64,000 nucleotides of DNA from assembly GCA_965197905.1 (NCBI GenBank), contig CBDAOB010000004.1, positions 960,001 to 1,024,000 on the forward strand, given 5' to 3'. This DNA is from Candidatus Latescibacterota bacterium. Lineage in GTDB: Bacteria; Latescibacterota; UBA2968; UBA8231. Below, one piece after another: positions 1 to 45,096 of the stretch (position 1 is the stretch's first letter; every line of letters begins with the position of its first letter). The notes below the pieces were generated by a model. That model saw only the letters and a list, made by a program, of their open reading frames with translations, did no database searches and was not told the origin of the DNA. The translations under genes and the position numbers were made by a program.

Positions 1-227
1 GGGGGGCAGGGTCAGACGTCCACCTATCGCCGCTCCTGGGCCACCCTACTGGCACGGGTTTTTGCATCGATGTGACGCGCTGTCCGGACTGTGGTGGTCG
101 TATGAAGATCATCGCCGCCCTCACCGACCCACGTTCGATCCGCCGCTATCTGCACGGTATGGGCTTGCCGGCGCGGGCGCCGCCCATCGCATCCGCGCGA
201 CCCCAACCGCAATTCGACTACGCCTGA
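1..227 (+). pseudogene. IS91/ISCR-family (HUH rolling-circle) transposase, C-terminal fragment with frameshift
   Basis: Manual translation: RRSWATLLARVF, then a -1 frameshift near 62-65, then IDVTRCPDCGGRMKIIAALTDPRSIRRYLHGMGLPARAPPIASARPQPQFDYA*. The W..LL.RVF.ID...CPxCGG.M.IIA pattern is typical of the IS91-family C-terminus. Cut by the window edge. Confidence 0.85.
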
Positions 228-432
228 TTGGCTGAGGGCGAGGTATGTCTACCCGTTTTGAGCGGTTGCTCAAAAGCGGCGTTCAGGTGCCCGAAATAGA
301 TCCGCACTAGCGATTCGCGGCCGTTTCCCATGGCCAGCCGACCATACGTTGCAAATGTCCCGAAAAACGCCGCACTAGACCGGCACGGACCCTCGGCGCA
401 ACTGTCGATAACGGTGTTTATTCGTCCTGTAC
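203..432 (+). mobile_element. oriIS-like end of IS91/ISCR element, copy 1
   Basis: Lies downstream of the transposase stop, contains a perfect hairpin TTTTGAGC-ggtt-GCTCAAAA (256-275) and ends GGTGTTTATTCGTCCTGTAC. Near-identical blocks occur at 3262-3493 and 9824-10063. Confidence 0.8.
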
Positions 433-438
433 TTTGAT

Positions 439-522
439 GTGAAAACCGTTGCATTCGTCGACGATGACGAAAGAGAGTTGAGACGTTTTGAAAAAGCTCT
501 TAGCCAGTACTTTCACGTGTAA
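439..522 (+). pseudogene. Response-regulator receiver domain N-terminal scrap
   Basis: VKTVAFVDDDERELRRFEKALSQYFHV* resembles beta1 plus the acidic pocket of a receiver domain; only 27 codons. Confidence 0.4.
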
Positions 523-702
523 CTGGATTGGGTTACAGCCAATGTGCAGATATACTCGTGAAGAGTGGCAAAGCGAGGCCAGATCTTTGGGTGCTTGACC
601 TATACTTCCCAGGGGACGGCGTAGTCAATAGTTCGGCGCAACGAGATGAAATGAATGTCAAATATCAACAATTGGAAAGCCATACGCGCGGGGGATGATA
701 GC

Positions 703-1473
703 ATGTCATCTATTGAGTTGGCTTCGGGGTGTGCCATACCGCTCGTGGGGCTGGGCACCTGGAATTTGAGGGGTGGCGAGTGTACAGAGGCGGTGAAACG
801 GGCGCTGGACATGGGCTACAGGCATATCGATACCGCGCATATGTACCGAAATCACGATGCTGTCGGTAAGGGCCTCAAGCAGAGCGGTATCGGTCGAGAG
901 GACGTATTTGTCACCACAAAAATTTGGCATGATGCCCTCCGGTACGATCAGGTGATGGAACAATTCCAAAACTGCCTGGACGAGCTGAAGACCGAATTCG
1001 TAGACCTGTTGCTCATTCACTGGCCCAACGAGGCGGTGCCCTTAGAGGAGACGCTCAGGGCTTTCGACGAGATTCAAGTATCGGGTCGGACTCGCCATAT
1101 AGGCGTGAGTAACTTCTCTAACGAACAGGTGGACCAGGCCATCCAACTGGCCGAGGCGTCTATCTGCACTAACCAGGTTGAATGCCACGTCGGCCATTTC
1201 CAAGGATCTGTCTGGCGGCACTGCAGCGAAAACGGAGTTGTTGTCACCGCTCACCGGCCGCTGGCTGTAGGCGCCGCAGCGAACGACCCCACACTGGCCG
1301 AGATCGGAGCGGCACGTAACAAATCCGCTGCGCAGGTTGCCTTGCGGTGGCTGGCGCAGCGCCAGATTGTGGCCATTCCTAAGGCCAGCTCCGAAGCCCA
1401 TCTGCGAGAGAACATAGACATCTTCTCGTGGACCCTGGAGGAACAGGAAATGCAGCGAATTGACCAATTATAA
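703..1473 (+). CDS. Aldo/keto reductase (2,5-diketo-D-gluconate reductase-like)
   Basis: GLGTW, GYRHIDTAHMY, VFVTTK, DLLLIHWP, IGVSNF and IPKAS motifs. Start placed at ATG 703 after a GGGGA RBS (ORF is open from 655). Confidence 0.9.
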   Translation: MSSIELASGCAIPLVGLGTWNLRGGECTEAVKRALDMGYRHIDTAHMYRNHDAVGKGLKQSGIGREDVFVTTKIWHDALRYDQVMEQFQNCLDELKTEFVDLLLIHWPNEAVPLEETLRAFDEIQVSGRTRHIGVSNFSNEQVDQAIQLAEASICTNQVECHVGHFQGSVWRHCSENGVVVTAHRPLAVGAAANDPTLAEIGAARNKSAAQVALRWLAQRQIVAIPKASSEAHLRENIDIFSWTLEEQEMQRIDQL

Positions 1474-1553
1474 GAAGCGCAGAATGGCCCTGGTTCAAAA
1501 CGGGATCAGGGAACTCGAAGGTCGTCAGTGAGCATCCCAGGAATATCACAACC

Positions 1554-1973
1554 ATGCAATCATGCATCTTCTGCCAAATCGCTCGGCGCGAAGCGCCCGC
1601 AAGTATTGTCTATGCCGACGAGTTGGTTACCGGACTGATGGCACTGCATGCCCAAGGTCCGGGGCATATGCTCGTTATTCCGAATGAGCACGTCGCGATA
1701 ATAAGCAATCTGCCAGAGCTGTCTGCGCATGTGTTCTTCATCAGTATGCGGCTGGCTCACACGCTTTCTAGCGTACTGTCAAGCAGTGGTTGTACGTATC
1801 TTATGCATGAAGGCTTCGAAACGTTGCATGTTCATCTGCACATTATCCCAAGGCACATTGATGACCACGTGCAACTTGACCAACGGGCTCGCGAGACGCC
1901 ACGTGAGGAACTAGACCACATAGGCGCCCAGCTACGAAGGATGTACGAACTCTCCTGGCCAACTCACGATTGA
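1554..1973 (+). CDS. HIT family protein
   Basis: N-terminal CIFC, GHMLVIP and histidine triad HVHLHII. Confidence 0.9.
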   Translation: MQSCIFCQIARREAPASIVYADELVTGLMALHAQGPGHMLVIPNEHVAIISNLPELSAHVFFISMRLAHTLSSVLSSSGCTYLMHEGFETLHVHLHIIPRHIDDHVQLDQRARETPREELDHIGAQLRRMYELSWPTHD

Positions 1974-1998
1974 GGGAAAGATTACTTGATCCTTTGCC

Positions 1999-2657
1999 AT
2001 GACCAATTCTAACGCCGACGTCGACGCACTGGCGCAGCTAATTTGGGACTACCATCATGTTGAACACACATTGGATGAGTCGGACTGTATTATCGTCCTT
2101 GGTAGTAACGATCCTAGGGTAGCGAGCAAAGGCGCCGAGTTGTATCGAAACGGCTCGCTCCGCTTATGGTGTGCACGGGTAACGTGGGCAAACAGACTCG
2201 CGGCATGTACGAGAAATCGGAGGGTGCTTATTTCGCGGAGATTGCGATACGTGACGGTGTGCCTTCGAGCGACGTTCTTGTGGAGGACAGGGCCGGCAAC
2301 ACAGGCGAGAATTTTCGTTTTACTCGCGAATTACTGGGGGGACACGGAAGATATATTAGTGACGCGATCGTTGTTACGAAACCGTATATGGAGAGACGAG
2401 CATTGGCCACCGCAGGGGCTGAATGGCCCGAATTACTTGCGCGCGTCACCTCCCCTAGCATCGATTTTCCGGAGTATTTCACGGAGGATCTTGGCAAAGA
2501 CAAGATCATTAACCTGATTGTGGGGGATCTTCAACGAATTAGAGTATATCCGGGGCTAGGGTTTCAGATAAAGCAGGACATTCCGGCGAATGTATGGTCG
2601 GCGTTCGAGCGTCTGGTTGAATTGGGATACGATAGACACCTGGTGGCCACAGCATAA
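1999..2657 (+). pseudogene. YdcF/DUF218 family protein, frameshifted
   Basis: N-part LIWDYHH...IIVLGSNDPRVA (frame of 1999) joins APLMVCTG...NTGEN...VTKPYMERRA (frame of 2166) if one base is restored near 2154. Confidence 0.8.
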
Positions 2658-2802
2658 CAACTGTTTCGAGGAGATTTAGAACCAGGGCTAAATTTCTGAG
2701 GATGGGACTGTATTTTCTGCGCGGAGTGAAGGGAGACCTCGACGGACGCCACACAATTTCCTAGTTTGCGTCCACCGAATCCGGTAGTCAGAACTAACGG
2801 CC

Positions 2803-2890
2803 ATGCCAGATCACCAATTCGAAGACCCCGAGTTAGCTGCTCTCTACGATTTGTTCGCGCCGCCGGCTGCAAGGGGAGATTTCGGATTCT
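2803..2890 (+). pseudogene. Probable class I SAM methyltransferase N-terminal scrap
   Basis: MPDHQFEDPELAALYDLFAPPAARGDFGF resembles the F.DP.LA.LYD start of many methyltransferases; the rest of the gene is missing. Confidence 0.45.
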
Positions 2891-3100
2891 CCCGGTCACA
2901 CGCCTGGTCATACGCTTTACCATTGGCGCGATAGGCGCAGGGAATTTCTGTTCTCTGGGCATGTTATGAAATTGGTCTTCGGCAAATGGGAGCTATTTTT
3001 CAACCCCACAAAAGCGCCAAGAGCTACTCAGTTCGATCATCTTTCCGGGGCAGATTATCTTTTGCCGACTTCATCCCGCTATCGGGCACTCAGACAAAGG
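2891..3100 (+). pseudogene. Metallo-beta-lactamase-fold fragment
   Basis: PGHTPGHTLYHW...FLFSGH motif, open in the same frame as ORF 2966-3304. Confidence 0.55.
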
Positions 3101-3109
3101 GATCTCACG

Positions 3110-3290
3110 CCGTCGTGGTCGGACGGCACCACCCACCTGATCCTTTCTCCCCTCGAACTCATCGAGAAGCTCGCCACTTTGGTACCGCCGCCGCGGCTGA
3201 ATCTGATTCGCTATCACGGGGTGTTGGCACCCAACGCCGCCGATCGCATCGGCGCGACTAGATCCCCAACCGCAATTCGACTACGCCTGA
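3110..3290 (+). pseudogene. IS91-family transposase internal fragment with deletion
   Basis: WSDGTTHLILSPLELIEKLATLVPPPRLNLIRYHGVLAPN (the IS91 RYHG..APN motif) is joined directly to the terminal PQPQFDYA* segment seen in copy 1. Confidence 0.85.
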
Positions 3291-3493
3291 TCCTCTTCGG
3301 GTGAAGTGTGTCTATCCTCTTGAGCGGCTGCTTAAAAGCGGCGTTCAAGTGCCCAAAATAGATCCGCAATAGCGCTTCGCGGCCGTTTCCCATGGCCCGC
3401 CACCCCTACGTTGCAAATGTCCCGAAAAAACCCCACCAGAGCGGCACGGACCCTCGGCGCAACTATCGATAGCGGTGTTTATTCTTCCTATAC
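3262..3493 (+). mobile_element. oriIS-like end, copy 2
   Basis: Colinear with 203-432; ends GGTGTTTATTCTTCCTATAC. Confidence 0.85.
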
Positions 3494-4648
3494 TTTTTCG
3501 GTGCGTCTGACCGCCAGCATAAAGCCCAAACAGGCCAACGGCGCCAGCGCCAGTAAAGCCATCGCCGTCTCCAGTCCGAAGGCATCGGCGACAATGCCGA
3601 TGCAAAGGGGGCCGGCGAAAGCACCGACCACGGCCACCATCGTCAAGACCGCAAACATGGTAGCACCGCTGTCGGGAAAGCGATTGGCAGCGTAGCTGAC
3701 CATCGTGGGAAAGAAGCAGGAGACGCCGAGGGCGAGGGCGTTTAGACAGGCGATCGTGAAAAGCGTACTGGTGGGCATGGCGGCCAGCGCCAGGCTGACG
3801 GCGCAGAACGGGGCGGCGGCTAGGAAGAACGAGTGGATGCCCATGCGCTCGACCAAGCGGACGCCGAAGATGCGACCAAACGACATCGTAACGCCCAGGG
3901 CCAGGAGCGCGACGATACCCGCGGTCTTGGTTCCCCCAGCGACCTGCTCGATGAAATAGGGGGCCCAGGTAAGTGGTCCCACCTCGGTGGCACCGGAGAA
4001 AAACATGGCCGCACACAGGAGCAGGAAGGCAGGATGGCGCAAAGCCTTTCGCAGCGGCGGCCGTACCCCCCGATCCACCGCCGCCGTGGCCGGCGGTACG
4101 GGAACGAAAAGAGCGGCGACGCCGTAGGACAACACGACAACCGCGAGCAGCCGGAAGGTTTCGCGCCAACTCCAGGCCAGTTCGTGAAGGGTTAACAAAA
4201 GAAGGACAAGGACGATCATGCCGAGGTAGAAATTGGCGTGAAGAATGGCCGTAACTTTGACACGTGCGCGGGGGTAGATCGCACACAGGACCGCGTTCAT
4301 GGGGGCGGGCGTCAAACCCCGACCGCTACCGGCCAAAAAGCTGGCTGCGGTGGCCTCGGTGAGATTCTGGGCGCCGGCTACGAGCCAGAGCCCGCAGAAC
4401 TGCACAAGACCGCTGAGTAGTAACAGATAACGCAGGCCGATGCGCTCCCCCAGCCAGCCGGAAAAGAGCATGACCAACGCAAGCCCCCAGTAACCGGCGG
4501 ACAGGAAAACCCCCATCCCGGCAGCGGATACCATGCCAAGATCGGCAGCTATGGAACCGACGGAGATGGCCGGGGTGACAGTGAAGCCACTGCCCGTAGC
4601 CATGCAATAACAGCACAGCATCAGGGTTGCCCGGCGGGAATAGTTCAA
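3488..4648 (-). CDS. MFS transporter
   Basis: About 12 hydrophobic segments; motif A-like GWLGERIGLR. The stop codon lies inside the oriIS terminus. Confidence 0.85.
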   Translation of the reverse strand: MNYSRRATLMLCCYCMATGSGFTVTPAISVGSIAADLGMVSAAGMGVFLSAGYWGLALVMLFSGWLGERIGLRYLLLLSGLVQFCGLWLVAGAQNLTEATAASFLAGSGRGLTPAPMNAVLCAIYPRARVKVTAILHANFYLGMIVLVLLLLTLHELAWSWRETFRLLAVVVLSYGVAALFVPVPPATAAVDRGVRPPLRKALRHPAFLLLCAAMFFSGATEVGPLTWAPYFIEQVAGGTKTAGIVALLALGVTMSFGRIFGVRLVERMGIHSFFLAAAPFCAVSLALAAMPTSTLFTIACLNALALGVSCFFPTMVSYAANRFPDSGATMFAVLTMVAVVGAFAGPLCIGIVADAFGLETAMALLALAPLACLGFMLAVRRTEKV

Positions 4649-5076
4649 GGTGGCGGAATTTCGCTATGCCGCGGCGACGGCGGCGCGACGGCGGGCGGGC
4701 ATTTTGGTTTCAACAGTGGTATGTCGTCTTTTTCCAACGGGAGCCAGATTGCGTTCCTGGGAGTGAATGATGGCCGAACTCGCCGTGAGTGGGCGCGCCC
4801 GGCGAAGCGGAGAGGAAACAGTACATGGAGCGAGGCTACGTCAAGAATCTGCCCGGTCTCGATCAGGAAGGGGTAGCCGAACTGCAGCGCCGGATGCTAA
4901 CTACTGGCCATAGGAAGCAATGCCACGACCTGGTTAGCCCATGAGGTGAAGTGCGCTCTTCACAGCCAGGTGTTGCCCGCTTTTCTCGAGGGAGAGCCTG
5001 TATTAAATTCCACCCCTGCAAGCGACTGAGATGTCGAGCGGAGGGCATCGTTTTCCGACTCGGCGGAGGATACGAA

Positions 5077-5280
5077 ATGGCGAAGGACCTCGGTGTGGGC
5101 ATTCTGGGGGCAGGCCGTGTCTCATGCGATCACGCCTACGCCTCGATGGGGATGCTACGATGAGTACAAGAAGCGCCACGACGATCTCTGGCCCGAGCTA
5201 TCGGAGGTGATGAGCCAGAAGGGCATCGACATGGTGATCTACCGGCACGAGGACCTGCTTTTCGTGTACGGTACCGCCCC
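5077..5280 (+). pseudogene. Chimera: Gfo/Idh/MocA oxidoreductase N-terminus fused to an L-rhamnose mutarotase-like fragment
   Basis: GGAGGA RBS then MAKDLGVGILGAGRVSCDHAYA, followed out of frame by GCYDEYKKRHDDLWPELSEVMSQKGIDMVIYRHEDLLFVYG (EY..RH...WPE mutarotase motif). Confidence 0.65.
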
Positions 5281-5520
5281 TCGCAGGGGGCCGCCGCAAT
5301 CCGGACAGCGCGTCACATCGATGCGAGAAACAGTTGTCCTGGGGTTGTCCCACGGAACCCGTTGCCAGCTGCAAGCGGATCGCCGACGACTCCCGCTACG
5401 ACTCCCCCTTCGTTCAGCCTAAGCCCAGCATAGCCCGATGAGTCACGGCCGCCTTCCTCTACTTCTAGAGGCTCTCACAGCGAGGGGTCCGCCGAGACGC
5501 ATGACTCGTGAGGGAGTCTT

Positions 5521-5551
5521 CAACTAGTCTCCAACTAGACCTCAACTAGAC
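5521..5551. repeat. Three tandem CAACTAG units with an 11-bp period
   Basis: CAACTAGtctc CAACTAGacct CAACTAGac. Confidence 0.75.
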
Positions 5552-5606
5552 GGCGTCACGCGGGATCTGCCCCGTGTTCGAACAGCGCGCGCGCCTCGGA
5601 AGCGAC

Positions 5607-7395
5607 CTACGGCCGATAGTGGATCGGCGATGTATATGCGCGCTCTTGAATCGACAGCGCTCGGATCGAAATCCGGATCGGTCCACACCGCCGACAATGT
5701 CGCGCTGCCGTGTTCGTTCGTGTACATCGCGGTGGCGGGATCGACCGTATCGGGTACGCGCGGCACACGGCCCTGCGCATCGGGCTTGCGCTTGCCTTCA
5801 GCTTGCCCAGCCCAGGCCACATCGTAGACACGCTCGCGCAGAGTACCACCCTCGATCCAGCCCTTCACCACTTGAATGCGATCGAGGTGCGCGCTCATCG
5901 CGTCCTTGGCCGCGTGGATCAAGAAGCCGGGCGCCCTCGTGAGTGCGCGGAGTTCGCCTCCCATTGGCACGCCGCCTGCCTTGCCGATGCCGGCGATGTC
6001 CGTGGCTCGCTCGTCGCCCGCCTTGATTCCCGCGCCGCCGTAGACCCGAACCCGGATCCGCGACCCGGTTGTCGCATACACCTCGCGCCGTTTGAACGCA
6101 GCCAGGATCGCATCGCGCGTATTTTCTTCCGCCCACACCGCGGCCAGCCCCGAAGCCGACATCGTCCAGCCATTCAGGCCACTCGTGCGACCATCATTCA
6201 GGCCTTGCTTGCTCTCGGGCGTCGAGTCCATCGCGAACTTGCCCCAGAAATTCGGCTCCTAGGCGCTGGAAACGCCGCCGTGCGAATCCGTCGAACCGAT
6301 CAAACCAAAGCGATACGGATTGAAGCCAATGCGCTCCTCGATCGCGAGCCCGGTGAGCAGCCCCGAACGCACGTAGTCCGCCGGTTTTGGGTCGTAGGGG
6401 GGAGGATCGGGTTGTGAGTAGAAGGGAAACTCTTCGAAGTCGGCGAAGGGGTCATCCGGTGACAGTGTGGGGTGAGTCTCCGAATCGCCCTTGATCTGGG
6501 TCGCCTCCACGACGGTCTCCCACTTGGCACGGTGCTTTACCCAGGCCGCATCGATCGGCGTTCCCCGCAGCCGCTCCTCCGCCGGAAACATGTAGCCCTT
6601 CGAGAGGTTCGAGTTATGGGGGATCGCAACGAAGTCCGCACCTGTCGCCGCAGCCGTTTCGTCGAGCCAGGTCCACAGGTCTTCGGGATAGTTGCTTTGG
6701 TCCGAGCCAAAGGGCATGAAGTTCTTTGCCACACTGGCGTCCGCACTCGTAAAGACGACGCGATGCAGGCTCGCGCCAGCGGGCCTCGAACTCCACTCCC
6801 ACCCGATCAGCGCGGTGAACTGGCCTGGCGCGTTGTGCCGATCGGCGAGCAGGATCGCTTCGTCCCAGATCGTTCGCGCCATGGCGGCGCCACCCGGGAG
6901 CGTGGAGCCACCACGCGGCATCGCGGCATCGGTCCGGACATCCTCTTCTGCCGTCAAGACATGCCTCATGATGTCGATCCCCTCGCCCTTCTCGAGCTTC
7001 CCCCGCACCCACCACATAAGGACGGGTGCCGCCAGACTTTCGAAGAATCCGAGCTCTTCCTGTGGCACACCGCGTTCCATCGCATAACGCAGGACGCCCA
7101 GGCCCTCGGCGTGGTCGGCGATCACCAGGAAATCGAGGGGCGTATCGATCTGCACCCGGGCGCGGTTGCCGGGATGGACGACTGGCAGGCCCTTGGCAAA
7201 GCGATAGGCGGTTTCGGGGTCGGCCGTCATGTTGCCGAAGAGGTAGGCATCGGTGGAGTTAGAGGAGTGGAGGTGCGTATCGCCCCAGAGCAGCTGATCC
7301 TGCGCCGTCGCGGTACCAGCGAGTGCCGCAAGAGAGGCCAGTGCGATGATGGATACGCTGTACAGTTTCGCGACCTCGCGATGGTTGAGCTTCAT
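5607..7395 (-). pseudogene. DUF3604 (PHP-like) secreted protein, interrupted
   Basis: Signal peptide, WGDTHLHS, LDFLVIADHAE, IGWEWSS, IPHNSN and GSTDSH. In-frame TAG at 6259-6261, then EPNFWGK...AVWAEENTR...REVYATTG...DPDFDP. The terminal IQERAYTSPIHY lies in another frame after an apparent deletion near 5655. Confidence 0.85.
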
Positions 7396-7466
7396 GACTC
7401 GGGATCCGTCCTCCGCGATGGGAATGGGGGCTCGCGGTGCTCCTCGGCTTGGATGGCGTTCCGCAA

Positions 7467-8500: not shown

Positions 8501-8905
8501 TCAATTCGGCCGCTCCAGATATTCGCAGAACGCGTTGGCCAACCGCATCCTCGGGCTCTTGCAGTCCGGCTCGAACAACCGCGGACTCGCAAGCAGGATG
8601 CAGACGCACCGGGCTCTCGAAGTAGCGACGTTTAAGCGATTGAGACTGTAGAGAAACTCCATGCCCCGCGGGGCTTCTTCGGCAGAGGAGGTGGTCATAG
8701 AGTAGATCACAACGGCCGCCTCCTGCCCTTGGAATTTGTCCACTCGGGCATGCGGCAAACGGGCTTGCAGATCCGCAACCTGCACGTTGTACGGCGCCAC
8801 GATCAAGATGTCATCGTTGGTCAACGGTTTCTCCACGCCCTCGCCTGTCGTCCACGTCACGCCGCCCCGCAATAGCTCCCGCATCACCTCCTCGACGCAG
8901 TCAAA
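8501..8905 (-). pseudogene. SF1 helicase C-terminal (AAA_12) fragment, TM0106-type nuclease/helicase
   Basis: DILIVAPYNVQV, VDKFQGQEA and NRLNVATSRAR motifs; the 5' part is replaced by oriIS copy 3. Confidence 0.85.
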
Positions 8906-8990
8906 GTATAGGACAAGCAAAGACCGTTATCGATAGTTGCGCCGAGGGTCCATGCCGCTCTGGTGGGGGTTTTTTCGGGACATTTGCAAG
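8906..8990 (-). mobile_element. oriIS-like end, copy 3 (short)
   Basis: Reverse complement reads TTGCAAATGTCCCGAAAAAA...GGACCCTCGGCGCAACTATCGATAACGGTCTTTGCTTGTCCTATAC. Confidence 0.85.
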
Positions 8991-9009
8991 CGCGGTAAAC
9001 CGGTTACCC

Positions 9010-9528: not shown

Positions 9529-9823
9529 TTCGTCCGTCCTTTTTCGGTTCGTGGGTTGTCGAGCGCTGGTATCAATTTGGCGCGCCGAGCTCCAGATCGG
9601 ATTCCCGCTTGCGAAAACAGACCTGGACGGGCAGCTCGTGCATGCGTTCGGCGCATGAGATGTTGAAAATGACCGCGCCGATCGAAGCCACGTCCAAGCC
9701 GCGGGAGACGTACTCCCCGGTCCATCCCTCGTAGACAGGATCCTTCCACTTCTCTATGCTCGCCTTGAAGGTGAAACGTTCGAACCAGTTCGCGGGGACC
9801 TGGGCGGTGTCCAGTATGCGTAA

Positions 9824-10063
9824 GTATAGGACAAATAAACACCGTTATCGATAGTTGCGCCGAGGGTCCGTGCCGCTCTGGTGGGGGTTTCGGGACATTT
9901 GCAAGGTATGGTCGGCTGGCCATGGGAAACGGCCGCGAAGCGCTATCGCGGATCTATTTCGGCCACCTGAACGCAGCTTTTGAGCAACCGCTCAAAACGG
10001 GTAGACATACCTCGCCCGCAGAGGATCAGGCGTAGTCGAATTGCGGTGGGATCTGGTCGCGCG
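9824..10063 (-). mobile_element. oriIS-like end, copy 4 (includes transposase stop region)
   Basis: Reverse complement is colinear with copies 1 and 2 from CCGCAATTCGACTACGCCTGA to GGTGTTTATTTGTCCTATAC, including the TTTTGAGC/GCTCAAAA hairpin. Confidence 0.85.
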
Positions 10064-10075
10064 GGAGCGAACGCC

Positions 10076-10101
10076 GGCGTCCACTCCGCCCCTCGTCACC
10101 A
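10076..10101 (+). other. Degenerate tRNA 3'-end fragment (possible att site)
   Basis: GGCG-TCCACT-CCGCC-CCTCGTC-A-CCA has the T-stem, 7-nt acceptor strand, discriminator and CCA layout; no 5' half is present. Confidence 0.4.
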
Positions 10102-16522: not shown

Positions 16523-16572
16523 TTACGTAATACTTGGCCCTTTAGTGCGCTACCCTTTGCCGACACAGCCCC

Positions 16573-16620
16573 CAAATGCCCCGAAAAACGCCCGCACCAG
16601 AGCGACACGGACCCTCGGCA
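16573..16620 (+). mobile_element. Partial oriIS-like repeat, copy 5 (terminus missing)
   Basis: CAAATGCCCCGAAAAACGCCCGCACCAGAGCGACACGGACCCTCGGC matches the internal block of copies 1-4. Confidence 0.7.
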
Positions 16621-17532: not shown

Positions 17533-17614
17533 GTGCGCTCAGATTGTCGTATGTCACCGAATACGTAGAACACGCGCGCTGAGTCTACAGGGACACCGAT
17601 CGCGCTCGATTGCG

Positions 17615-17656
17615 CGCTATTGTATGTGAGACAGTCGCTATTGTATGTGAGACAGT
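17615..17656. repeat. Perfect 21-bp tandem duplication
   Basis: CGCTATTGTATGTGAGACAGT twice, directly before ATG 17658. Confidence 0.95.
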
Positions 17657-17657
17657 A

Positions 17658-18670
17658 ATGGAATTCGACCTCCGTAATTCTCAACTATTCCTTGATGATG
17701 CTATAATCGAACAATCGGTTCGGTTGCAGCGGGTGATGCATCAGCCCCACAAGTATTTCGACAATCCCGTATATACCGTTGGGGCTCCATGGGAAGGCAA
17801 TGGGATCGTTTATCTTGGCGGCGTGTATATCGATCCGGCCGATGGGCTATGGAAAGCGTGGTACGTAACGCTCTCGCCGCCGGAATATCCGGAAATACAG
17901 TTCGCCATTTGTATGATCGTGTCCGACGATGGCATCCACTGGCGTCGGCCCGAACTGGACGTGTATCGCGGTCGTAACGGCGAGATGACGAATATCGTCC
18001 TGGACCTCGGCCCGGCAGGGCGCACAACAGCGCCGACCATCCTTCACGAGCCGGACGCTGACGAGCCGTGGACCATGTTTATCAGCCTGTGCTGGCCGCC
18101 CGACAGCAAACACTACCTGGGGTATTTCCTGAAATCTCCTGATGGCGTCCACTGGCGCTGGGTTCAGGAGCGCCCAAACGGATTCGAACACGGACTCCAC
18201 GACCGTACAACGGCAACCTTCAGCGGCAATCCCGACTACCCCTATCTCCTCATCGGACGGGGCAAAGAGGATATCGCACGCTGGAACCTACCGCGAACCG
18301 CCCACAGACTCGCGTGCAGCCTTACGGAGGCCGAACCTGGCGAGCCGACGAGGGTGCTCGTTCCGGACCTTGAAGACGATCCGGCGGGCTACCTATCGAG
18401 TGGCCGGGAGGCGAACTGAGTATCAACGCGGCGGTTCTCGGCGGCAGCGGCGCGGGTGAGCTCCGCTGTGAGGTATTGACGGAAGCGCTCGATCCGATAT
18501 CGGGTCTGTCCCTCGCGGACGCCGATCCTGTAACGAGTGATAGTACGGCTCTACGGCAGACGTGGAACGGCGACGCGAAGAAGATCGACTCGTTGCGAGG
18601 GCAGCAGATCCGACTGCGCTTCCACCTGGACAATATGGACCTGTTCAGCTTCAAAGCGGATTCATCATAG
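17658..18670 (+). pseudogene. Beta-propeller hydrolase-like protein, internally deleted
   Basis: QLFLDD, SDDGIHWRRPEL and SPDGVHW. After DLEDDPAG (near 18390) it jumps out of frame to C-terminal PIEWPGGELSINA...IRLRFHL...LFSF. Confidence 0.75.
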
Positions 18671-30467: not shown

Positions 30468-30564
30468 GCTGTTCGATCACAGCCAGATACCCAACCGCAG
30501 CGCTTGATCGGTCCGCGGGTCCGCGGGTGAAGCATACTTGTGCCGCGTGACCGCAGCGTCTAGA

Positions 30565-30684
30565 GCCCCTTCAGGAACCGAAATCGACGCCCTTTCCCCG
30601 TCGCGCACCGCCAAACGACCCAACCTGTTCACAAAACCGCTGGCTTGTTGCTACTACCGATAATACCGTTTATTCGCCCTATCC
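30565..30684 (+). mobile_element. Diverged oriIS-like end, copy 7
   Basis: TTCAGGAACCGAAATCGAC and terminal GATAATACCGTTTATTCGCCCTATCC resemble the matching blocks of copy 1. Confidence 0.5.
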
Positions 30685-30793
30685 TTCCTATCCTCTGCAT
30701 CATCACCGTTGATGTAGATGATCCCTGGCGACAACATCGAGTGGCGCTGCTGGGCATACTGCTGCGTCATTAAAACGCAGGAGGTTTCAACAT

Positions 30794-35258: not shown

Positions 35259-35356
35259 CGAACTAGTGCTTGTACCGCTTAGCTCCTAGAATATTCCTGT
35301 CGGGGCCGAGAAGCAAATTCCGCCATGCCTCGCTCCATTTGCAGCTGGCGTTAAGA

Positions 35357-35515: not shown

Positions 35516-35606
35516 GCGTCCGCCGGACTCTCCAACGTGTCCCCAGAATCTCCCGGTGCTGGCTATCCAAGTAAATCTCCAGATTTCAACCATGCCTCCT
35601 GATTTT

Positions 35607-37904
35607 CTAGATCGGCCGTCCGAACTCGGTAAACCCCAAGAGCACCCTCACGAAGAACGTTCGCAAGTGGAAGTCGCGGTCGTCCAGAAACGGGGAGTCA
35701 TACTCGATCCTGTCGGCGTTGAACCCCATTGTGGTTACGAGGTCGTAGCCAAAATAACGCGAGCTGTTGGTGATGGAAACGAAAACGGTGCGCCGCTCAA
35801 AGCTGTTGCGTTTTGAGGTGTCGTCCCGGCGCCGGTACGGTATGGGTCCAAAGCCCTGGAATCCAACCCGCAGGTTTGTCCTGGTAAGGAGCGGATATTC
35901 GACGCGTAGAATCGGGATAGAGCGCAGCTCCGACTGCAGCCGCACCTCGCGCTCCCGATCCACCAGGCGCAACAGCAGGAGCTTGTATTTGGGGGTAACC
36001 GTCAGTTTGCCCCAGCGCCCCTCGTACTGGATGCGACTGGTCGAGGTCCAGAAATCGACCCGGCGCTGCCGCTGGAAGAGGCCGTGCACCTTGCCGCCTT
36101 GCTGCCAGTTGAAACGTCCCCGCAGTTTCTGCACGATCTCCAAGGACGGCCAGGGCACAACGCGGCCTTGCACATAGCTGTCGCTGACGATGCTATCGCG
36201 GTAGAACGGCTGATCGGGCAGGATCTCCACCACCATGTGCACCGGCAGGCCGAAACCCTCTTGAACGGGCCGGAGGTAGGCAATTCCACGGCTTCCAAAG
36301 CGCACATCGCGCGGTCCCGCGTCATCGTCGAACACCATGATCTCATCGGCGATGTCGTCCTGAATCTTGCGCAGGCCGCTCTCGAAGAACAGGCTTTTGA
36401 GTCCTCCCTCTCCCTGCCATCGGTAGGTCAACAAACCATAGGTCGAATGGTTGTTCCCGCTGCCCGCAATCTCCTCGATGTCGTAGCGGCCGGCGGCGGC
36501 GGACCAGCCTGGCGTCAGATCCCACTGGCCGAACAGGTGGTAGCCGCGCTCGTCGTGCTCGTAAGGGTAGTCCACTTCGGCGTCGTCTTCGCGCTGGTCC
36601 GGCTCGTCATTGTTGTTGCGGTCCAAGCCGTACACGTAGCTGTTGGGCTCCACATCGAACATCAAAAACGGCTCTTCAAAGTCGGGCAACCGGTTGAAAT
36701 TGCGATTGGTGTCGGGGGCGCCGTCGTTGTCCGTATCCTGGTTGACAAAGACGCCGTTGAGGTCGGTGCCGACGCGGTCTCGGGGTATGCCTGGGGCGTT
36801 GCCGTATTTGATGTCGGGATAGCGATCGCCGTCGTCGTTGTCATCGACCGTCTGCCAGTACATGGAGCTGTTGAGCAGACCGTCCAGATGGCTCATCCAA
36901 AAGCTGGATTCACTGTGCAGAAAAGTGCGCATCTCGGTCTGGAAATCTGGATTGATAGAAAACATCTCGGCGCCGATCCGTCCGCGGCCAAAACGTCGGA
37001 CGGCGTTGAGGAAGTAGGCCCCGCCGCGATCGGCAAAACGCGGCGCTTTATCGAAGGCGGCTTGTCCATCGATGCGGGCGGGATAGCGGGAATACACACT
37101 CGAGCGTGCGTATTCGGCCGAGATCTCGAGACCCGCAAGCGTGAGACTGGCGTCGGCGCTGTAGACGAAGTGACCGGTGTTTTCCCCGACATTGAAACGT
37201 ACCCGGCGCAGATTTGAAAGATCCTGAACATTGCCCTTGGAACGCCGCACTATGTGGTAGTAGGTGCTGGAGTAGCGGTCCGCGTAGTTGGCCGATTGGG
37301 ATTTGGTGTACAACATGGCCACGTCCACCAGGTAGTCGTTCCCCAACAAGCCTTCCACGGCCACTGACCGGACGTCAGGTTCGCCCGAAACGTCGAACAG
37401 AAATACGACCTGTTTCTCGCCATCTGCTTGCAGCATCCGCTGCGGTGATTCCACTGTGTAGAGGGACTCTAGGCCGGGGATATTGGCCTGTTTGCCGACA
37501 TCGATGCCCGCCTCGTGATCCAGGCGTGCGAGATAGTCCGCAAACAGCGGGAAATCGCGATTGCGGTAGTAGAATTCGTTGAAGTAGGGGGCGGCGGCGG
37601 AAGCAGAGAATAGGTCGTAGCCCAAGGGGGTGAAACTGCCGTCGAGCGCCGAAACAAGTCCCACCTGAATCGGGGGTTTGCCGACATGGCTGATCACCTG
37701 GGGCACCAGGTCGGGCCGCGCCTGGTCATTGATCACCAGCTGAAGATCCTGCACCGCCGCGCCGCCGCCGCCGTCAGCGGGCGAATCGTCCCGGAAGCGC
37801 ACGATGATCCAGTCCATCATCGGCTGATCCGGCTTCAGTCTGCCCTTGAGACTGTTCCCGGTGGTCCGCGTGCTCTGGTAGACGTGCTGGTTCACCCAGT
37901 TCAA
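35607..37904 (-). CDS. Large outer-membrane/surface protein, 5'-truncated
   Basis: 765-codon ORF with Asp-rich DDNDDGDRYPD, DTDNDGAPD and DRNNNDEPD motifs and amphipathic C-terminal strands. It has no signal peptide or RBS and begins about 30 nt from the stop of the neighbouring gene. Confidence 0.6.
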   Translation of the reverse strand: MNWVNQHVYQSTRTTGNSLKGRLKPDQPMMDWIIVRFRDDSPADGGGGAAVQDLQLVINDQARPDLVPQVISHVGKPPIQVGLVSALDGSFTPLGYDLFSASAAAPYFNEFYYRNRDFPLFADYLARLDHEAGIDVGKQANIPGLESLYTVESPQRMLQADGEKQVVFLFDVSGEPDVRSVAVEGLLGNDYLVDVAMLYTKSQSANYADRYSSTYYHIVRRSKGNVQDLSNLRRVRFNVGENTGHFVYSADASLTLAGLEISAEYARSSVYSRYPARIDGQAAFDKAPRFADRGGAYFLNAVRRFGRGRIGAEMFSINPDFQTEMRTFLHSESSFWMSHLDGLLNSSMYWQTVDDNDDGDRYPDIKYGNAPGIPRDRVGTDLNGVFVNQDTDNDGAPDTNRNFNRLPDFEEPFLMFDVEPNSYVYGLDRNNNDEPDQREDDAEVDYPYEHDERGYHLFGQWDLTPGWSAAAGRYDIEEIAGSGNNHSTYGLLTYRWQGEGGLKSLFFESGLRKIQDDIADEIMVFDDDAGPRDVRFGSRGIAYLRPVQEGFGLPVHMVVEILPDQPFYRDSIVSDSYVQGRVVPWPSLEIVQKLRGRFNWQQGGKVHGLFQRQRRVDFWTSTSRIQYEGRWGKLTVTPKYKLLLLRLVDREREVRLQSELRSIPILRVEYPLLTRTNLRVGFQGFGPIPYRRRDDTSKRNSFERRTVFVSITNSSRYFGYDLVTTMGFNADRIEYDSPFLDDRDFHLRTFFVRVLLGFTEFGRPI

Positions 37905-37932
37905 GCCCAGATGCTGTCACTCCCCACCAAAT

Positions 37933-39402
37933 CTACTCATTCGCCACGTACAGGGCGTACACCTTCGCATCCTCCGGCCGGAGCCCGTCGCCGTAATTCA
38001 CCTGCAAACGGAACGACTCCCCCGCCGGCAGCTCGTCGCGCTCCTTCCAGCGCACCGGCAGACGGAAGCCGTCCTCCGCCAGCGGCACACAGGCATCTCC
38101 GGAGTATCCGGGCAGCGGATGGAAACCCTCGTCGAGCACCTCCACCGTCACCGGAGAGTGCTCGTTCAGATCGGCGTTGGCGAACACCTTCTGCGGACCG
38201 TCACCGGCGCGCAGGGGGCAGCTGATGAAGTGGGGCCGCGGTCGCGTGATCGGGAAAAACTCCCCCTCGCCGAAGATGATCTCGTCGAAGGTCTCGAAAC
38301 AGCCGAGCCGGTCCAGGTGCCAGCTGGCGCAACGGACGTCGGTGCCGAAGAACATGCCATACCACATCAGGGTCCTGTCGCCGCGGTTGACCATCGCCGG
38401 TCCGTGGGCATGGGTGAGCGCGCGGCCGCGGTCGTCCGGTTGCTCGGGCTCGACGGCGGCGGGGATGAACTTGAAATCGGGAATCGGCTCGCGATAGTGC
38501 AGGGCATCGTTCGAAACCACCAGGCCCAGGTCCATGTCGATCCGGTTCTGCTCACCCATCGGGTTGCCGTGCCACATGTCGTAGCACCCGATGATCACAT
38601 TGCCGCGGCTCTGCAACATCGCGCCCTGATGGGCTTCCTCCGCCATGTTGTGGTGCGGCTCCATGCGCCGCGGCGGCACGTCGTCGCGGCGGAAACTGAG
38701 ACAGGAAGCCTGGGTCCAGGTCTCGAAATCGTAGGAGGCGAAGGTGACCATCTTGCGGGTGATGCCGAAGTGGGAGCCGTGGTAGCCCAGCTCGTCCTGG
38801 GAGGTGACGTAATAACAGCCGTTGTGTTTGACCACGCTGCCGGTCTCCTGGGCCGGACCCACCGGGTTGTTGGGCGATTCCGTCCAGCGCAAGCCGTCGG
38901 GGCTGTAGGCCACCGCCAGGCTGTTGACGAACTGATTGGCCTCGATGCACATCTTGAAGCGACGGTTGGGATCGGGATCGTCCGGATCGAAGATGACGGG
39001 CGCGCTGGTCAGACAGGGCTGGCCGTCGAACAGGTCGATGATGTTGTTGTTTTTGTTGCCGTTGAACTCGATCAAACCCAGGTTCGGTCGCTCCCAGTTG
39101 TAACCGTCTTGACTAACCGCATAACCCAAGCGCCGGGACTTGTCCAGACTACTCTTGGCCTGGTACCACATGCGCAGCTCGCCGTCGAAATCGATGACCG
39201 TGCCGTAGAAGTGGACCTTCTCGTCATCGACCGAGCCCGGTTCGCCGCGGCGCAGGACGATGGGGGGTTTGTTGTAGGGGGTCTTTCCCGGAACCAGCTG
39301 CAACCGCAGTCCGGTGCTGAACGGGATGCTGTGGGTGTCGAAGGGAAACAGGACGGCTTCGTCGACTTTGTTGATGGGAACTGCGTTATGCACTTCCAAC
39401 AT
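37933..39402 (-). CDS. Beta-propeller glycoside hydrolase-like protein
   Basis: LFPFD, LRMWY, YAVSQDGYNWERPNLG, DPDPNRRFK and YSPDGLRW; C-terminal PGYS...VRW...KVYALY; AGGAG RBS. Confidence 0.75.
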   Translation of the reverse strand: MLEVHNAVPINKVDEAVLFPFDTHSIPFSTGLRLQLVPGKTPYNKPPIVLRRGEPGSVDDEKVHFYGTVIDFDGELRMWYQAKSSLDKSRRLGYAVSQDGYNWERPNLGLIEFNGNKNNNIIDLFDGQPCLTSAPVIFDPDDPDPNRRFKMCIEANQFVNSLAVAYSPDGLRWTESPNNPVGPAQETGSVVKHNGCYYVTSQDELGYHGSHFGITRKMVTFASYDFETWTQASCLSFRRDDVPPRRMEPHHNMAEEAHQGAMLQSRGNVIIGCYDMWHGNPMGEQNRIDMDLGLVVSNDALHYREPIPDFKFIPAAVEPEQPDDRGRALTHAHGPAMVNRGDRTLMWYGMFFGTDVRCASWHLDRLGCFETFDEIIFGEGEFFPITRPRPHFISCPLRAGDGPQKVFANADLNEHSPVTVEVLDEGFHPLPGYSGDACVPLAEDGFRLPVRWKERDELPAGESFRLQVNYGDGLRPEDAKVYALYVANE

Positions 39403-39504
39403 GGTTTCAATCTCCTGTGGGGTTCATGAGCTGCTTCGGGGTCATAGTTATAAGGAATATGGCCGGCGGGCGCACGAGAGGTCAGAGCTGGTTGGTGAAG
39501 GATC

Positions 39505-39572
39505 AGAAACTCCATGCCGATCAGGTCGACGTCGTAATTCTGCGCCACCTCTTCGATGAGGCCGAAGAATAG
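39505..39572 (-). pseudogene. About 70-bp scrap of a third TIM-barrel hydrolase paralog
   Basis: LFFGLIEEVAQNYDVDLIGMEFL matches HIFAVIEEVAENYDVDLIGMEFF in 45756-47396. Confidence 0.8.
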
Positions 39573-39865
39573 CCCGTCCTTTGGAAATCCGGACGTCATA
39601 ATTCTGGCACAGATGCACGAATCTGGAATGAATATTTATCTTGATGCACTCCTCGTTCCGTATATATTTTCCCAGTTAAAGCTACTCACCGGGTTTGTCT
39701 GCACCTTAATCTGTATTCGCCCTCGCCGGAGGGGGTTAAGAGAAGTTGCTAAACTCCGGAGAAAGGAGTAGAGCCACAACACAATCTAGTTTACGTAAAT
39801 ACCAGTTGATTCACGTCTTTAGGTGAATCTCGGTTTCCCTCACTTCTCTCAAGGAGAATTCAAAG

Positions 39866-41824: not shown

Positions 41825-41852
41825 ACACGGCTTTACGTTCGGTATGGTCGGT

Positions 41853-41888
41853 ACAGGGGCGGATCACGCGATCTGCCCCTGTTTCTTT
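41853..41888 (+). terminator. Rho-independent terminator
   Basis: ACAGGGGCGGATC-acgc-GATCTGCCCCTGT followed by TTCTTT. Confidence 0.8.
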
Positions 41889-42053
41889 GCCCTGCGATTA
41901 ATGCCGTGGATTCGATGAACTCGGAATCTGGCCTTATGCCCCTGCTGCTCGCGAATTATGAAATCGTTGAGGCTAGATGTTAATTTGCTTGGACGTGCGC
42001 GTTAAAACTCAAGTATGTTGATGGTCTTGTAGAACCAAGAGGAGGTAATCGGC

Positions 42054-42530
42054 ATGCCAAATCCAGGAGTCGTGCTGGAAAGAGTCGGATCGACAGCAGA
42101 ACGGCTGCGCCAGCTGCCGTACGAGAAGCGGGTGTGCAAGACGGAAGCCTACCCCGCGGTCTCCCGGCCGGACAAAGAGTACACCGGACTGTCCGTCGCT
42201 GAGTTCGCCGAATGGGCCGCGGATGTGGGCCTGGAGGCCACGGTTCTGAAGGGAGGAATCGATCGCGGCACCCCTCGCTACCGCCCTTATCTGACCAGCC
42301 TGCACCTGAAGGATACGCGCACCATAGACGGCCCGTCGTGCAGGTTCGAGTGGTGCGAGCTGGGCACCGGCGACCCCGATTACGCGGCGCTCTTCCGCGC
42401 CTTTGTGCGCGATCGACTGGATGTGGTCATCGCCGTGGCCTCTCACTACGAGCCGCCCGGCGGCACCCCGGCCGATGGCGTGCGGCTCAACCACCGGACG
42501 GCCCTGGAGCTGGCGGAGTCGGCGCAATGA
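42054..42530 (+). pseudogene. Sugar phosphate isomerase/epimerase (xylose-isomerase-like TIM barrel), internally deleted
   Basis: LSVAEFAEWAADVGLE and LHLKD...LGTGDPDY motifs, but only 158 codons, too short for a full barrel. Confidence 0.6.
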
Positions 42531-43748
42531 GGCTTCCCATCTCCTTTGAGCTGGATCGCTACACCGATCTTCCCACCATCTATCAGGCGGACGACTACCG
42601 CGCGCCGGGCGTGAAGAGCCTCTTTTTTCAAAACGAAGACCACTTCGATAAAGAGACCCGCGTATTCGGATGGATCGGCATGCCGTATCTGCGCGACGGG
42701 GACAGTTGTCCTGCCATGGTTCTCATACACGGCGGCCGCGGTACCGCCTTCGACGAATGGGTCCGGTTGTGGAACGCCAGAGGGTACGCCGCAATCACGG
42801 TCGATCTGTGCGGCTGCGTGCCGCGGATACCCCTTCCCGAAACCGGCGTGAAATACCAACGGCACGAGTTCGCCGGCCCCGAAGGTTGGGATGCGTCGTT
42901 CGAGCAGATGGAGTGGAAGACGGAGGATCAGTGGCAGTACCATGCCGCCACCGCCCTGCTGCGGGCGCACACCATCATCGCCAACACGGAGGGGGTCGAT
43001 CCAGATCGAATTGGCGTCACCGGCATCTCCTGGGGTGGGTATCTCACCTGCCTGATGATGGGGATCGATCCCAGGTACAAAGTGGCGATACCGGTATACG
43101 GATGCAGCCGTATGACCGACGGAACCTGCCGGGAGCTTCGGTACCAAGATGAGCGCCGGCAGGAGGAGGTTGCAGCGTGGGGCAAACGCTGGGATGCGAT
43201 CCACTACATACCGAACGGACGGATGCCGTCACTCTGGGTCAGCGGCACCAACGAGGACCCTTACACGTTCGATTGTTTCGCCAACTCGTTTGCATCGACG
43301 GTGGATCCGACCGTCTCCATCCGGGTTGAAATGCCCCATGGCCACACCCACGGATGGGCACCTAGCGAGATTCATCACTTCACCGATGCTTTGTTCAAAG
43401 GGGGGGCGCCCCTGCCAAGACATGTCGAGACCCGGGTACGCGACGGGCGGATAATTTCCAAGTTCGAGTCAGCGCGTCCGCTGATGAAAGCGACACTCTG
43501 TTACACGCGGGCTACAGGCTTGTGGCCAGACCGAAAATGGAACCAGATCGATTGGAGACCACCGCAGCCTTCATCAACGTCACCGACGACCGAGATCTGC
43601 TCGTATCGTCAACGCATATCGAACCTTGCCGCACTAGATGAAGTGGGGCAAGGGTATGTAGCGTCCGCCGAGCTCCCGCTGGAGACCACCGCAGCCTTCA
43701 TCAACGTCAACGCATCTGCTCGTATCGTCAACGCATATCGAACCTTGA
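42527..43748 (+). CDS. Alpha/beta hydrolase (acetylxylan-esterase-like), rearranged 3' end
   Basis: PAMVLIHGG, RIGVTGISWGG nucleophile elbow and MPHGH; ATG overlaps the previous stop. Confidence 0.8.
43553..43747 (+). repeat. Imperfect direct repeat (43553-43628 and 43680-43747)
   Basis: TGGAGACCACCGCAGCCTTCATCAACGTCA...ATCTGCTCGTATCGTCAACGCATATCGAACCTTG occurs twice; the second copy has a small internal deletion. Confidence 0.95.
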
Positions 43749-43898
43749 TTCGAGCAGAACTGCACTTAAGAAGCCCGACTGGCCAACTCACCGCTCTGAC
43801 GTTTGGGATCAGCATGTCCCACATTTCGCGAGCCGTTTGAGTTACATAAGCCGATAGGTCGTATAACAGAGAATTGAGTATTTTTTAGGGGTAATTCG

Positions 43899-44852
43899 AT
43901 GTCCAGATTTGATGTGTCTGTCATTGATGACTGGATGACAGAGGTTCGGCCTGGACCATGCACCTCTATCGCGATCAGGGTTAGGGGATGGGGGGGAAAC
44001 GAGTTTCGCCTGTGGTTTCCGGAGGGTGTCACCCCATTGGGTCTCACCCCATTATGGAAGAATCGCGATGGCTTGCAACAGTTTCAGAGGGACAGGGAAG
44101 GTAACCTCTACTGGGAGTTGGAGACCAACCGGGGACAGGCTCGGTTCTCGTTCCAGCCACGGGAACAGGACATCCACATGGAGGCTGTGGTTCGAAACAC
44201 CTCGGTTGCACCTTATGACGTGAGCACCGGTGTCTGCTTCCAGATGTGGAACGCTCCAGACTTTTATAGCTACGACTGCTCCCGTATCTTTGCCTGCTTG
44301 GACGGCGAATGGAAAAGCCTAAGGGAAACCGACTCTTTTCCTCTCCGTTTATACGAAAACCACGCCAGTTATAGCAAGGAGGGGCGCAGCGAACCGGCGT
44401 ACCCCGAAAAGGATACGATTAGCAAGGTTATAAAGAGGTTAAGCAAGGAAGAGCTAACGGAATTTAGGAGGCATGCTGTTGAGAAAGTTGCCTCGGATCC
44501 CAGGTACAACAAGATCGTGGACAAGGACCTGTACGATTTCGTCGTCCGGTGCAAAACCCGCGTAGAGATCAGGCCTAAATTCAGCCTAAATGAGTCAACG
44601 GAGGCACCGGAGCGAGCCAGCCACCCCCTCATCTGTGTGGTGGCCAAGGACGGAAAGCGGGCGGTGGGTATCGCCTGGCACGACTTCACCCGCCTCTCTC
44701 ACAATAACGACCCGTGGATCGGCTGCATCCACAGTGCACCCCGCCCAAAAGTGGCTTCGGGACAGGAAGTCACATTCCAAGGATGGCTGTTCTTCTCAGA
44801 AAGCGGACTTCAAGGCCTTATTGAAGCCTACAAAAAGGGCGTGGTGACCTGA
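43899..44852 (+). CDS. Hypothetical protein
   Basis: 317-codon ORF (FRLWFPE, CIHSAP); no family recognised. Confidence 0.6.
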   Translation: MSRFDVSVIDDWMTEVRPGPCTSIAIRVRGWGGNEFRLWFPEGVTPLGLTPLWKNRDGLQQFQRDREGNLYWELETNRGQARFSFQPREQDIHMEAVVRNTSVAPYDVSTGVCFQMWNAPDFYSYDCSRIFACLDGEWKSLRETDSFPLRLYENHASYSKEGRSEPAYPEKDTISKVIKRLSKEELTEFRRHAVEKVASDPRYNKIVDKDLYDFVVRCKTRVEIRPKFSLNESTEAPERASHPLICVVAKDGKRAVGIAWHDFTRLSHNNDPWIGCIHSAPRPKVASGQEVTFQGWLFFSESGLQGLIEAYKKGVVT

Positions 44853-44923
44853 GCCGGCCGAACATGCTATTTATCATTTCTGATGGACACAAAACCAAGT
44901 GCCTCGACGTGGTGGGGCATCCT

Positions 44924-45096
44924 GGGCTGCCTCAAAAGGGACGTTGAAGGCGCAAAATCGACCCACTTCTAACGCTTCGGGGCGGTTTTCCCTAGCCGGC
45001 CCCTACATACTCAGCAAACGCCCCCGAAAAACGCCGCGCAAGAGCGCCACGGACCCTTGGCGTGATTGGCGATAATGGTCTTCATTCGTCCTATAT
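44924..45096 (+). mobile_element. Diverged oriIS-like end, copy 6
   Basis: CTCAAAAGGGACGTTGAAGG...CCCCGAAAAACGCCGCGCAAGAGCGCCACGGACCCTTGGCG...GATAATGGTCTTCATTCGTCCTATAT is colinear with copy 1. Confidence 0.75.

Follow-up and report, generated by a model that had tools for sequence, protein, structure and literature searches.

Transposase-less origin ends of ISCR-like elements as remnants in a Candidatus Latescibacterota genome

How does a genome come to carry dozens of origin ends of a rolling-circle transposon while only fragments of the transposase remain? This question is raised by a 64,000-nucleotide (nt) stretch of a Candidatus Latescibacterota bacterium (assembly GCA_965197905.1, contig CBDAOB010000004.1, positions 960,001 to 1,024,000; hereafter the window), which holds seven related blocks among genes for PhyH dioxygenases, sulfatases, oxidoreductases, hydrolases and DUF3604 proteins. 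The original prediction interpreted these blocks as orphan oriIS ends of IS91/ISCR (insertion sequence common region) elements that persist as miniature elements, are mobilised in trans and have built a patchwork of catabolic genes by one-ended transposition. The source genome, G000, is a metagenome-assembled genome of 6.69 Mb in five contigs (C3, C4 and C5 among them). With moderate confidence, we favour the reading that the blocks are transposase-less, origin-side ends of ISCR-like elements, which inserted in bursts, eroded and were kept as homology blocks and predicted promoters.

The longer copies hold the final codons of a transposase. PF04986 (Y2_Tnp) scored above its cut-off at three places in G000, one of which is copy 2 of the window, and the NCBIfam ISCR clade Ia and IS91 models matched the remnant proteins below their cut-offs. 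Intact homologues of 476-483 amino acids were found in G020 and G015, and intact genes also in G043; G020, G043 and a further relative, G017, represent three other genera, and G015 likewise belongs to another genus. For the G020 and G015 homologues the best model was ISCR clade Ia (378 bits against a cut-off of 925), and the IS91 model gave 106 bits against a cut-off of 125. The clade Ia score, being below its cut-off, suggests a separate lineage. The intact homologues have one tyrosine, located in the stretch LCRYV, and a single catalytic tyrosine is a trait of ISCR elements. An annotated plasmid element (locus L171, 'IS91 family transposase') showed 41% identity over 93% of a relative's transposase, carries the terminus GGTGCTTTATACTTCCTATACTC 230 nt after the stop codon and has the single-tyrosine stretch ERLCRY in common with the relatives. 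Similar ends lie behind intact genes from many taxa among the matches listed, and the conserved oriIS terminus is located about 170-300 nt downstream of the transposase stop. Neither two catalytic tyrosines nor the IS91-type tetranucleotide target CTTG/GTTC was found. The G000 loci are remnants of the IS91/ISCR family rather than complete elements, and they represent an ISCR-like member of it, not IS91 sensu stricto and not a MITE (miniature inverted-repeat transposable element).

We found only the part of the transposase from about residue 252 onward in G000. A tblastn search of G000 with residues 1-250 gave a best E-value of 0.24, against 0.42 in the control, and PF14319 matched nothing in G000 and had matches in four of five relatives. 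No complete HUH transposase with zinc finger, HUH motif and catalytic tyrosine lies upstream of an oriIS in G000. No terIS was found at the far end, and 52 scored copies have no common 5′ end. No intact transposase was found in the three genomes of the genus, G000 and its sister genome G002 included, and no cognate intact gene in the 41 family genomes searched or in the best 79 of 442 loci in a species collection. The intact transposase genes that were found belong to other subfamilies, as does the conserved 105-130-nt leader of the relatives' intact elements, which had no match in G000. Matches to the transposase occur in 28 of the 41 family genomes; in the 150 of 412 matches that were listed, the N-terminus is present in 26, the C-terminus in 73 and both termini in 6, with frameshifts splitting matches. 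Codon homology, the terminus and the missing N-terminal half thus support the original prediction of IS91/ISCR-type origin ends with only transposase fragments left; the intact IS91 transposase with the same end, for which it suggested a search, did not appear in G000, the genus or the 41 family genomes. At L024 in G020, a short end of the window family stands no more than about 70 nt behind the end that belongs to an intact element, and G004 has the same stack.

The remnants are numerous and clustered. A first profile identified 35 loci in G000 and none in the reversed genome that served as control, and two profiles, for subfamilies A and B, gave 42 merged loci against none. Seven of the 42 lie within the window, where 0.40 were expected, and 17 lie in C4 800-1010 kb, where 1.3 were expected. 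A model search across the three genomes of the genus returned 35, 32 and 7 matches; remnants shorter than about 40 nt fall below detection. All seven blocks originally described were recovered in this profile search. Copies 1, 2 and 4 are mutually 88-93% identical; copy 6, at 71-75% identity to these three, represents a second subfamily. Copies 1, 2 and 4 reach further 5′ into the transposase codons than first described (about 466, 381 and 266 nt long). In order, the window copies lie on strands +, +, -, -, +, + and +. The best pairwise identity among G000 copies is at most 97%.

On the origin side, the junctions proved to be base-precise. The terminus is retained at 61 of 95 loci from G000 and the fetched parts of its relatives, and TATA is followed by C (36/39), T (38/39) and T (34/39) before the sequence becomes variable. 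A homologue of the downstream flank was available for 15 loci; one was another element copy, leaving 14 empty alleles. In these, homology starts after TATA or TATC at +2 (three alleles), +3 (two), +4 (five), +5 (three) or +6 (one), with the mode, +4, directly after CTT/CTC, indicating that the element ends at CCTATACTT or CCTATCCTC. The terminus in the original prediction was real but 2 nt too short, type A ending in ...CCTATACTT and type B in ...CCCTATCCTC/T, and the 14 alleles show origin ends joined to right-hand neighbours with base precision. Such precision suggests that a transposase made the joints. The target is loose, with 46 different tetramers in 54 targets; +1 is a pyrimidine in 40 of the 54, and YG occurs in 21, against a background of 16%. 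The empty sites divide evenly into seven within genes and seven between genes. As for target-site duplication, every copy has lost at least one of its original flanks. In some places the last 7-9 nt of the terminus stand twice in tandem (e.g. CCTATCCTT CCTATCCTC), as at 30678-30695 in the window and C3:305700-305730 in G000, and likewise at L099, L121 and L123, including unrelated taxa; the doubling possibly reflects insertion next to a pre-existing end.

The 5′ ends are scattered. The shortest remnants measure 42 nt and the longest about 1,000 nt, and they have no end in common; the 46 scored 5′ ends span 42-712 nt, and no motif was enriched at these breakpoints (YGAY 8 times, 7.1 expected). 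The left flank was kept in 0 of 14 empty alleles, searched within 6 kb upstream of the filled site. Both ends, uniform length and clean insertions, as in a MITE, were not seen. Scattered, motif-less 5′ ends and empty alleles without a left flank indicate that the copies are not the discrete miniature elements that had been proposed.

Individual copies suggest how such ends arise. Copy 1 (1..434, +, starting about 35 nt ahead of the window) comprises the last 74 transposase codons (stop at 225-227) and a type A origin end with the terminus ...TCCTGTACTT at 434; in the comparison with its empty allele, the left flank was located on another contig. It has 1.7 kb of upstream DNA in common with one G002 copy, and the downstream DNA differs. 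Between the two, the passenger and the first 100 nt of the remnant are 97-100% identical and the last 400 nt 80-88%, a pattern that fits a crossover between two remnants. Copy 3 (8904..8989, -) is an 85-nt type A origin stub. In a contig from X8, one of the sequencing runs X1, X2, X5 and X8 whose contigs we compared with the window, its helicase junction is joined to a copy 2-like element sequence of 210 nt or more, suggesting that copy 3 was likely shortened later. In G002, four direct copies that are 98-99% alike, lie 2-5 kb apart and have staggered 5′ ends (L043:4190-14854) are a recent burst. The intervening blocks match scattered G000 loci at 97-99% identity, and two of these loci likewise adjoin remnants. 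Overall, the remnants likely still act as recombination points; a self-running gene-capture system is not shown.

We then consider what the surviving tips may do. A sigma70-like promoter sequence, TCGATA-17-TATACT, fills the tip of copies 2, 3 and 4. In 41 of 52 cases (p = 3.6e-5) the first downstream gene is oriented away from the end; G000 alone gave 18 of 23 (p = 0.011). For upstream neighbours the count was 25/51, and random points gave 138/299, 141/299 and 96/196 (46-49%). Genes were called with our own hexamer model, and eight duplicate or poor rows were dropped. Downstream genes are co-oriented in 31 of 43 cases in other genera, where 120 of 186 long open reading frames already lie on the element strand, so that this local strand bias makes the result a weak replication. 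These data, with the predicted promoter sequence, suggest that origin tips probably act as outward promoters.

We next compared the remnants with the boundaries of the patchwork. Two remnant-free 20-kb control regions are collinear with G002 at 85-90%, and the window is likewise collinear with G002 at 45.1-64 kb. Window 1-20 kb maps to many scattered loci, several at 94-99% identity; this exceeds the core value and suggests recent exchange. By our count, a remnant edge lies no farther than 60 nt from about 6 of the roughly 40 block boundaries; this is an enrichment but a minority, indicating that the ends did not build most of the patchwork. In the window, the copies whose history is legible point to recombination within a remnant (copy 1) or to subsequent shortening (copy 3).

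From the identity of the ends, the precise 3′ junctions, the scattered 5′ ends, the missing N-terminal half, one crossover and the orientation bias, we infer an order of events, promoter activity and selection for that activity. Intact ISCR-like elements would have inserted in several past bursts, with the origin end joined precisely to loose targets. Deletion and recombination among copies would then have removed the far side together with its flank, and the tips would remain as short homology blocks that swap neighbours, probably serving as promoters for genes that lost their upstream DNA. A passing transposase would likely have moved a stub with upstream DNA in trans now and then, as a minor part of the window's history. 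Several points weigh against this account. The promoter is a 9-of-12 consensus match only, with 7 sites against 4.1 in region shuffles, and copy 1 has a weaker -10. The orientation bias in other genera is barely above the local gene-strand bias, and because copies under about 40 nt are undetectable, there is no basis for stating that the promoter always survives. The assembly is 91% complete in five contigs, and related copies are not independent. Moreover, the loss of the far half (26 N-termini against 73 C-termini among the 150 family matches listed) is too strong for random deletion and needs selection or a transposase-driven process.

The account in the original prediction, in which non-autonomous origin stubs are mobilised in trans and one-ended transposition carried passengers and built the patchwork, appears unlikely. 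Its best candidates are two pairs of G002 loci with a stub and passenger in common (87+136 nt at 99.6%; 53+about 715 nt at 95.5%). Both pairs diverge exactly at the terminus, and their stub variants are private to each pair, occurring in no other copy examined. In each pair one member continues into the passenger gene; the other has CGAT or (C/T)GAT at its start, as seen at some targets. This arrangement fits one-ended transposition from a stub in trans, but a crossover in the last ~35 nt could also yield it, and the GAT-type start consists of two cases picked after the fact. The same account gains from G020, G043 and G017, where 11 stretches, chosen for density, each have all their transposase C-ends (59 of 59 in total) pointing in a single direction, and from reports that for IS91 the last 82 bp are enough in trans (PMC13181058) and that IS801 undergoes one-ended events in vivo (PMC3189936, PMC6354349). 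However, no stub-and-passenger pair was found in G000, the sole shared-passenger case in the window is the crossover at copy 1, no intact transposase was found in the three genomes of the genus, and the window's copies lie in both orientations, at a minority of the seams. It is plausible that stubs are mobilised in trans, and the two candidate cases both come from G002. A broader proposal is doubtful: in Latescibacterota, stubs as short as 50-90 nt would each serve as a portable promoter, as a handle for recombination and as a rolling-circle origin usable in trans, together forming an integrase-free gene-accretion platform whose repeated use would stack catabolic genes in arrays of a single direction, exchanged between species at 94-99% identity.

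The orientation bias could also come from neutral debris, if strand-specific targeting (of the coding or replication strand) rather than promoter use had set it. Of the seven intragenic empty sites, six are in genes with the same orientation as the element, the element strand is the G-rich strand in 25-28 of 42 cases (p 0.04-0.28), and relatives carry unidirectional arrays. Yet the copies in C4 800-1010 kb occupy the two strands in about equal numbers, upstream neighbours are unbiased and the equivalent promoters of ISCR1 are proven (PMC6218425), so we regard this explanation as quite improbable. We give still less credence to the idea that the remnants were born short, each as a premature-termination product of an intact element of which only the origin-side part was inserted. 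Such an origin would account for the strong origin-side polarity and the staggered 98-99% copies in G002, and 26% of IS801 events are reported to be fragments of this kind (PMC3189936). It predicts clean insertions, seen in 0 of 14 cases, and target-like 5′ ends, for which no excess was found, although later deletions could have hidden both; the copy 3 junction is also attached to a longer remnant in X8. Finally, a collapsed repeat or other assembly artefact is scarcely credible. The source is a metagenome-assembled genome, and copies 3, 6 and 7 have no bridging contig in the listed pieces, 6 and 7 having been left out of the comparison. Nevertheless, the window contains no N and lies in the middle of a 2.15-Mb contig, its copies are only 71-93% alike, and contigs of two studies, one run possibly being the source sample, run across copy 5, the terminus of copy 1 and each end of copies 2 and 4; the 3′ junction of copy 3 was recovered in X8. 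The copies therefore do not sit only at contig joins, the case named in advance as fatal to the prediction. Taken together, the evidence still favours eroded origin ends of ISCR-like elements.

The window copies affect their neighbours in different ways. Copy 1, whose terminus is bridged by an X2 contig, abuts the stump of a response-regulator-like gene (435..690, +; label read from sequence), which is frameshifted, cut at 690 and has an intact G002 allele at 94.6%; the copy 1 origin end replaces its ribosome-binding site. Copy 2 (3114..3495, +; both ends bridged) contains transposase residues ~338-385 and an origin end with TCGATA-17-TATACT at 3466-3494, and has an internal deletion at a short repeat near 3235-3247. 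The stop codon of a major facilitator superfamily (MFS) transporter gene (3488..4648, -), its 3′ end likely clipped, lies inside the copy 2 terminus; that copy 2 provides this stop codon was overlooked originally. Beside copy 2, an X8 contig agrees with the window from 3496 onward and then carries other sequence. An apparent joint 211-3274 in X1 is most simply another copy of the repeat and was not used. A weak internal transposase scrap (5281..5361, -; residues ~410-436; 44 nt at 84%; E 0.22) lies beside an L-rhamnose mutarotase stump (5162-5290).

Directly behind copy 3, which carries the promoter-like TCGATA-17-TATACT, lies a C-terminal fragment of an AAA_12 helicase (8501..8903, -), the last 128 amino acids of a >1,100-amino-acid frame; a full-length paralogue in C3 has 1,005 more codons upstream. 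The copy 3 site in G002 holds other genes, with an enolase-like gene instead (label read from sequence). Copy 4 (9822..10088, -) consists of the last transposase codons and a type A origin end with a promoter-like site, and both its ends are bridged in X1. An 82-amino-acid frame runs open to its junction and has one 47% homolog in 40 relatives, so the abutting gene is likely truncated. Copy 5 (16564..16619, +) is an internal 56-nt piece without a terminus, bridged in X5. Copy 6 (30483..30686, +) is a subfamily B origin end with a doubled terminus, the second CCTATCCTC running up to 30695; it starts 12 nt past a PhyH block whose 94% identical counterpart in G002 lies at a distant locus, and we found no truncated gene behind it. 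Truncated neighbours had been assigned to copies 1, 3, 4 and 6; the first two are confirmed and the third is likely. Copy 7 (44925..45098, +) is an origin end with the variant terminus ...CCTATATTC, 92% identical to a copy in C5. It lies near the right edge of a 10.5-kb block missing from the syntenic G002 site, and was rejected as the right end of a clean 10.5-kb insertion because the DNA right behind it is unlike the G002 site.

Other repeats and features were also noted. Window 17568-18659, 35543-37914 and 37933-39498 have second copies elsewhere in G000 at 90-98% identity, with no remnant at their edges. A 256-267-nt piece at 42018-42284, without a Pfam match, is 99.6% identical to G002 and 95-98% to two C5 sites; we take it to be a scrap of another, IS1380-like family. 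A DUF3604 gene at 5542-7395 (-) is broken into two frames, which cover profile positions 2-338 and 366-541. A ~170-nt repeat at L169:7435-7617, with at least six further G002 copies at 84-97%, represents a small repeat family of its own. Dense arrays in which transposase 3′ remnants all point one way, as many as 15 within 80 kb, occur at L162-L165 and L174-L187 (G020, G043, G017), with intact elements among them, and offer better ground than the window for testing serial gene accretion. A G001 stretch (L157/L074) is 100% identical over 3.7 kb to a locus titled as another phylum, which points to a naming or binning conflict. An Rfam search of the window gave no match; the consensus RNA fold is weak (33 pairs, 7 compensatory, with an unfavourable covariation term), and we therefore claim no structured RNA.

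Known systems offer close parallels. We used the ISCR definition of PMC13393415; IS91 itself is reported to use the target CTTG/GTTC (PMC13181058) and two catalytic tyrosines four residues apart (PMC5714925). For IS801 of Pseudomonas syringae, right-end fragments of 229-679 nt were seen transposing, and its authors attribute most genomic fragments to reorganisation, see them as serving recombination and state that any ori can start one-ended events in trans (PMC3189936); up to eight ori801 per plasmid, with deletions bounded by them, are also reported (PMC6354349). Both systems have multiple origin-side fragments of an IS91-family element per replicon. IS801 minis, however, end at a target-like tetranucleotide and intact copies are present, whereas here neither a 5′ motif nor an intact copy was found, the target is loose and each genome carries about 40 remnants from several subfamilies. 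ISCR1 likewise has an origin region of about 230 bp behind the transposase and a promoter at the tip, and 84% of its downstream genes are co-oriented (79% here), but it is intact and integron-linked and its outward promoters PCR1-1 and PCR1-2 are proven (PMC6218425), whereas here the promoters are predicted, the genes catabolic and the transposase gone. The L171 plasmid element resembles our family in its near-identical terminus and ERLCRY stretch; our family, by clade Ia scores below the cut-off, is a separate lineage. An ISCR28 'sandwich' contains a remnant extra oriIS (PMC12772301), and Sphingobium herbicidovorans MH has IS91-like elements at catabolic clusters and an IS91 circle carrying a catabolic gene (PMC5737581). 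Remnant origin ends flanking passengers and a tie to catabolic gene shuffling are common ground; an intact transposase beside the passenger, and the circle observed in strain MH, are not matched here. Our literature searches returned the precedents cited here and no description of this remnant family in Latescibacterota.

All behaviours observed here have precedent in IS801, ISCR1 and ISCR28. Because the kind of element and each mechanism have been described before, the gain lies in scale and in a test set rather than in a new system. ISCR elements have been studied almost only beside resistance genes, and their far end is often missing. G000 and its relatives supply dozens of natural junctions with empty alleles; in these the origin end is precise, the target is loose, recombination runs through dead remnants and the orientation bias is confined to the downstream side. 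This junction set brings two old proposals, retention of origin ends as promoters and activity of stubs in trans, within reach of tests outside clinical plasmids.

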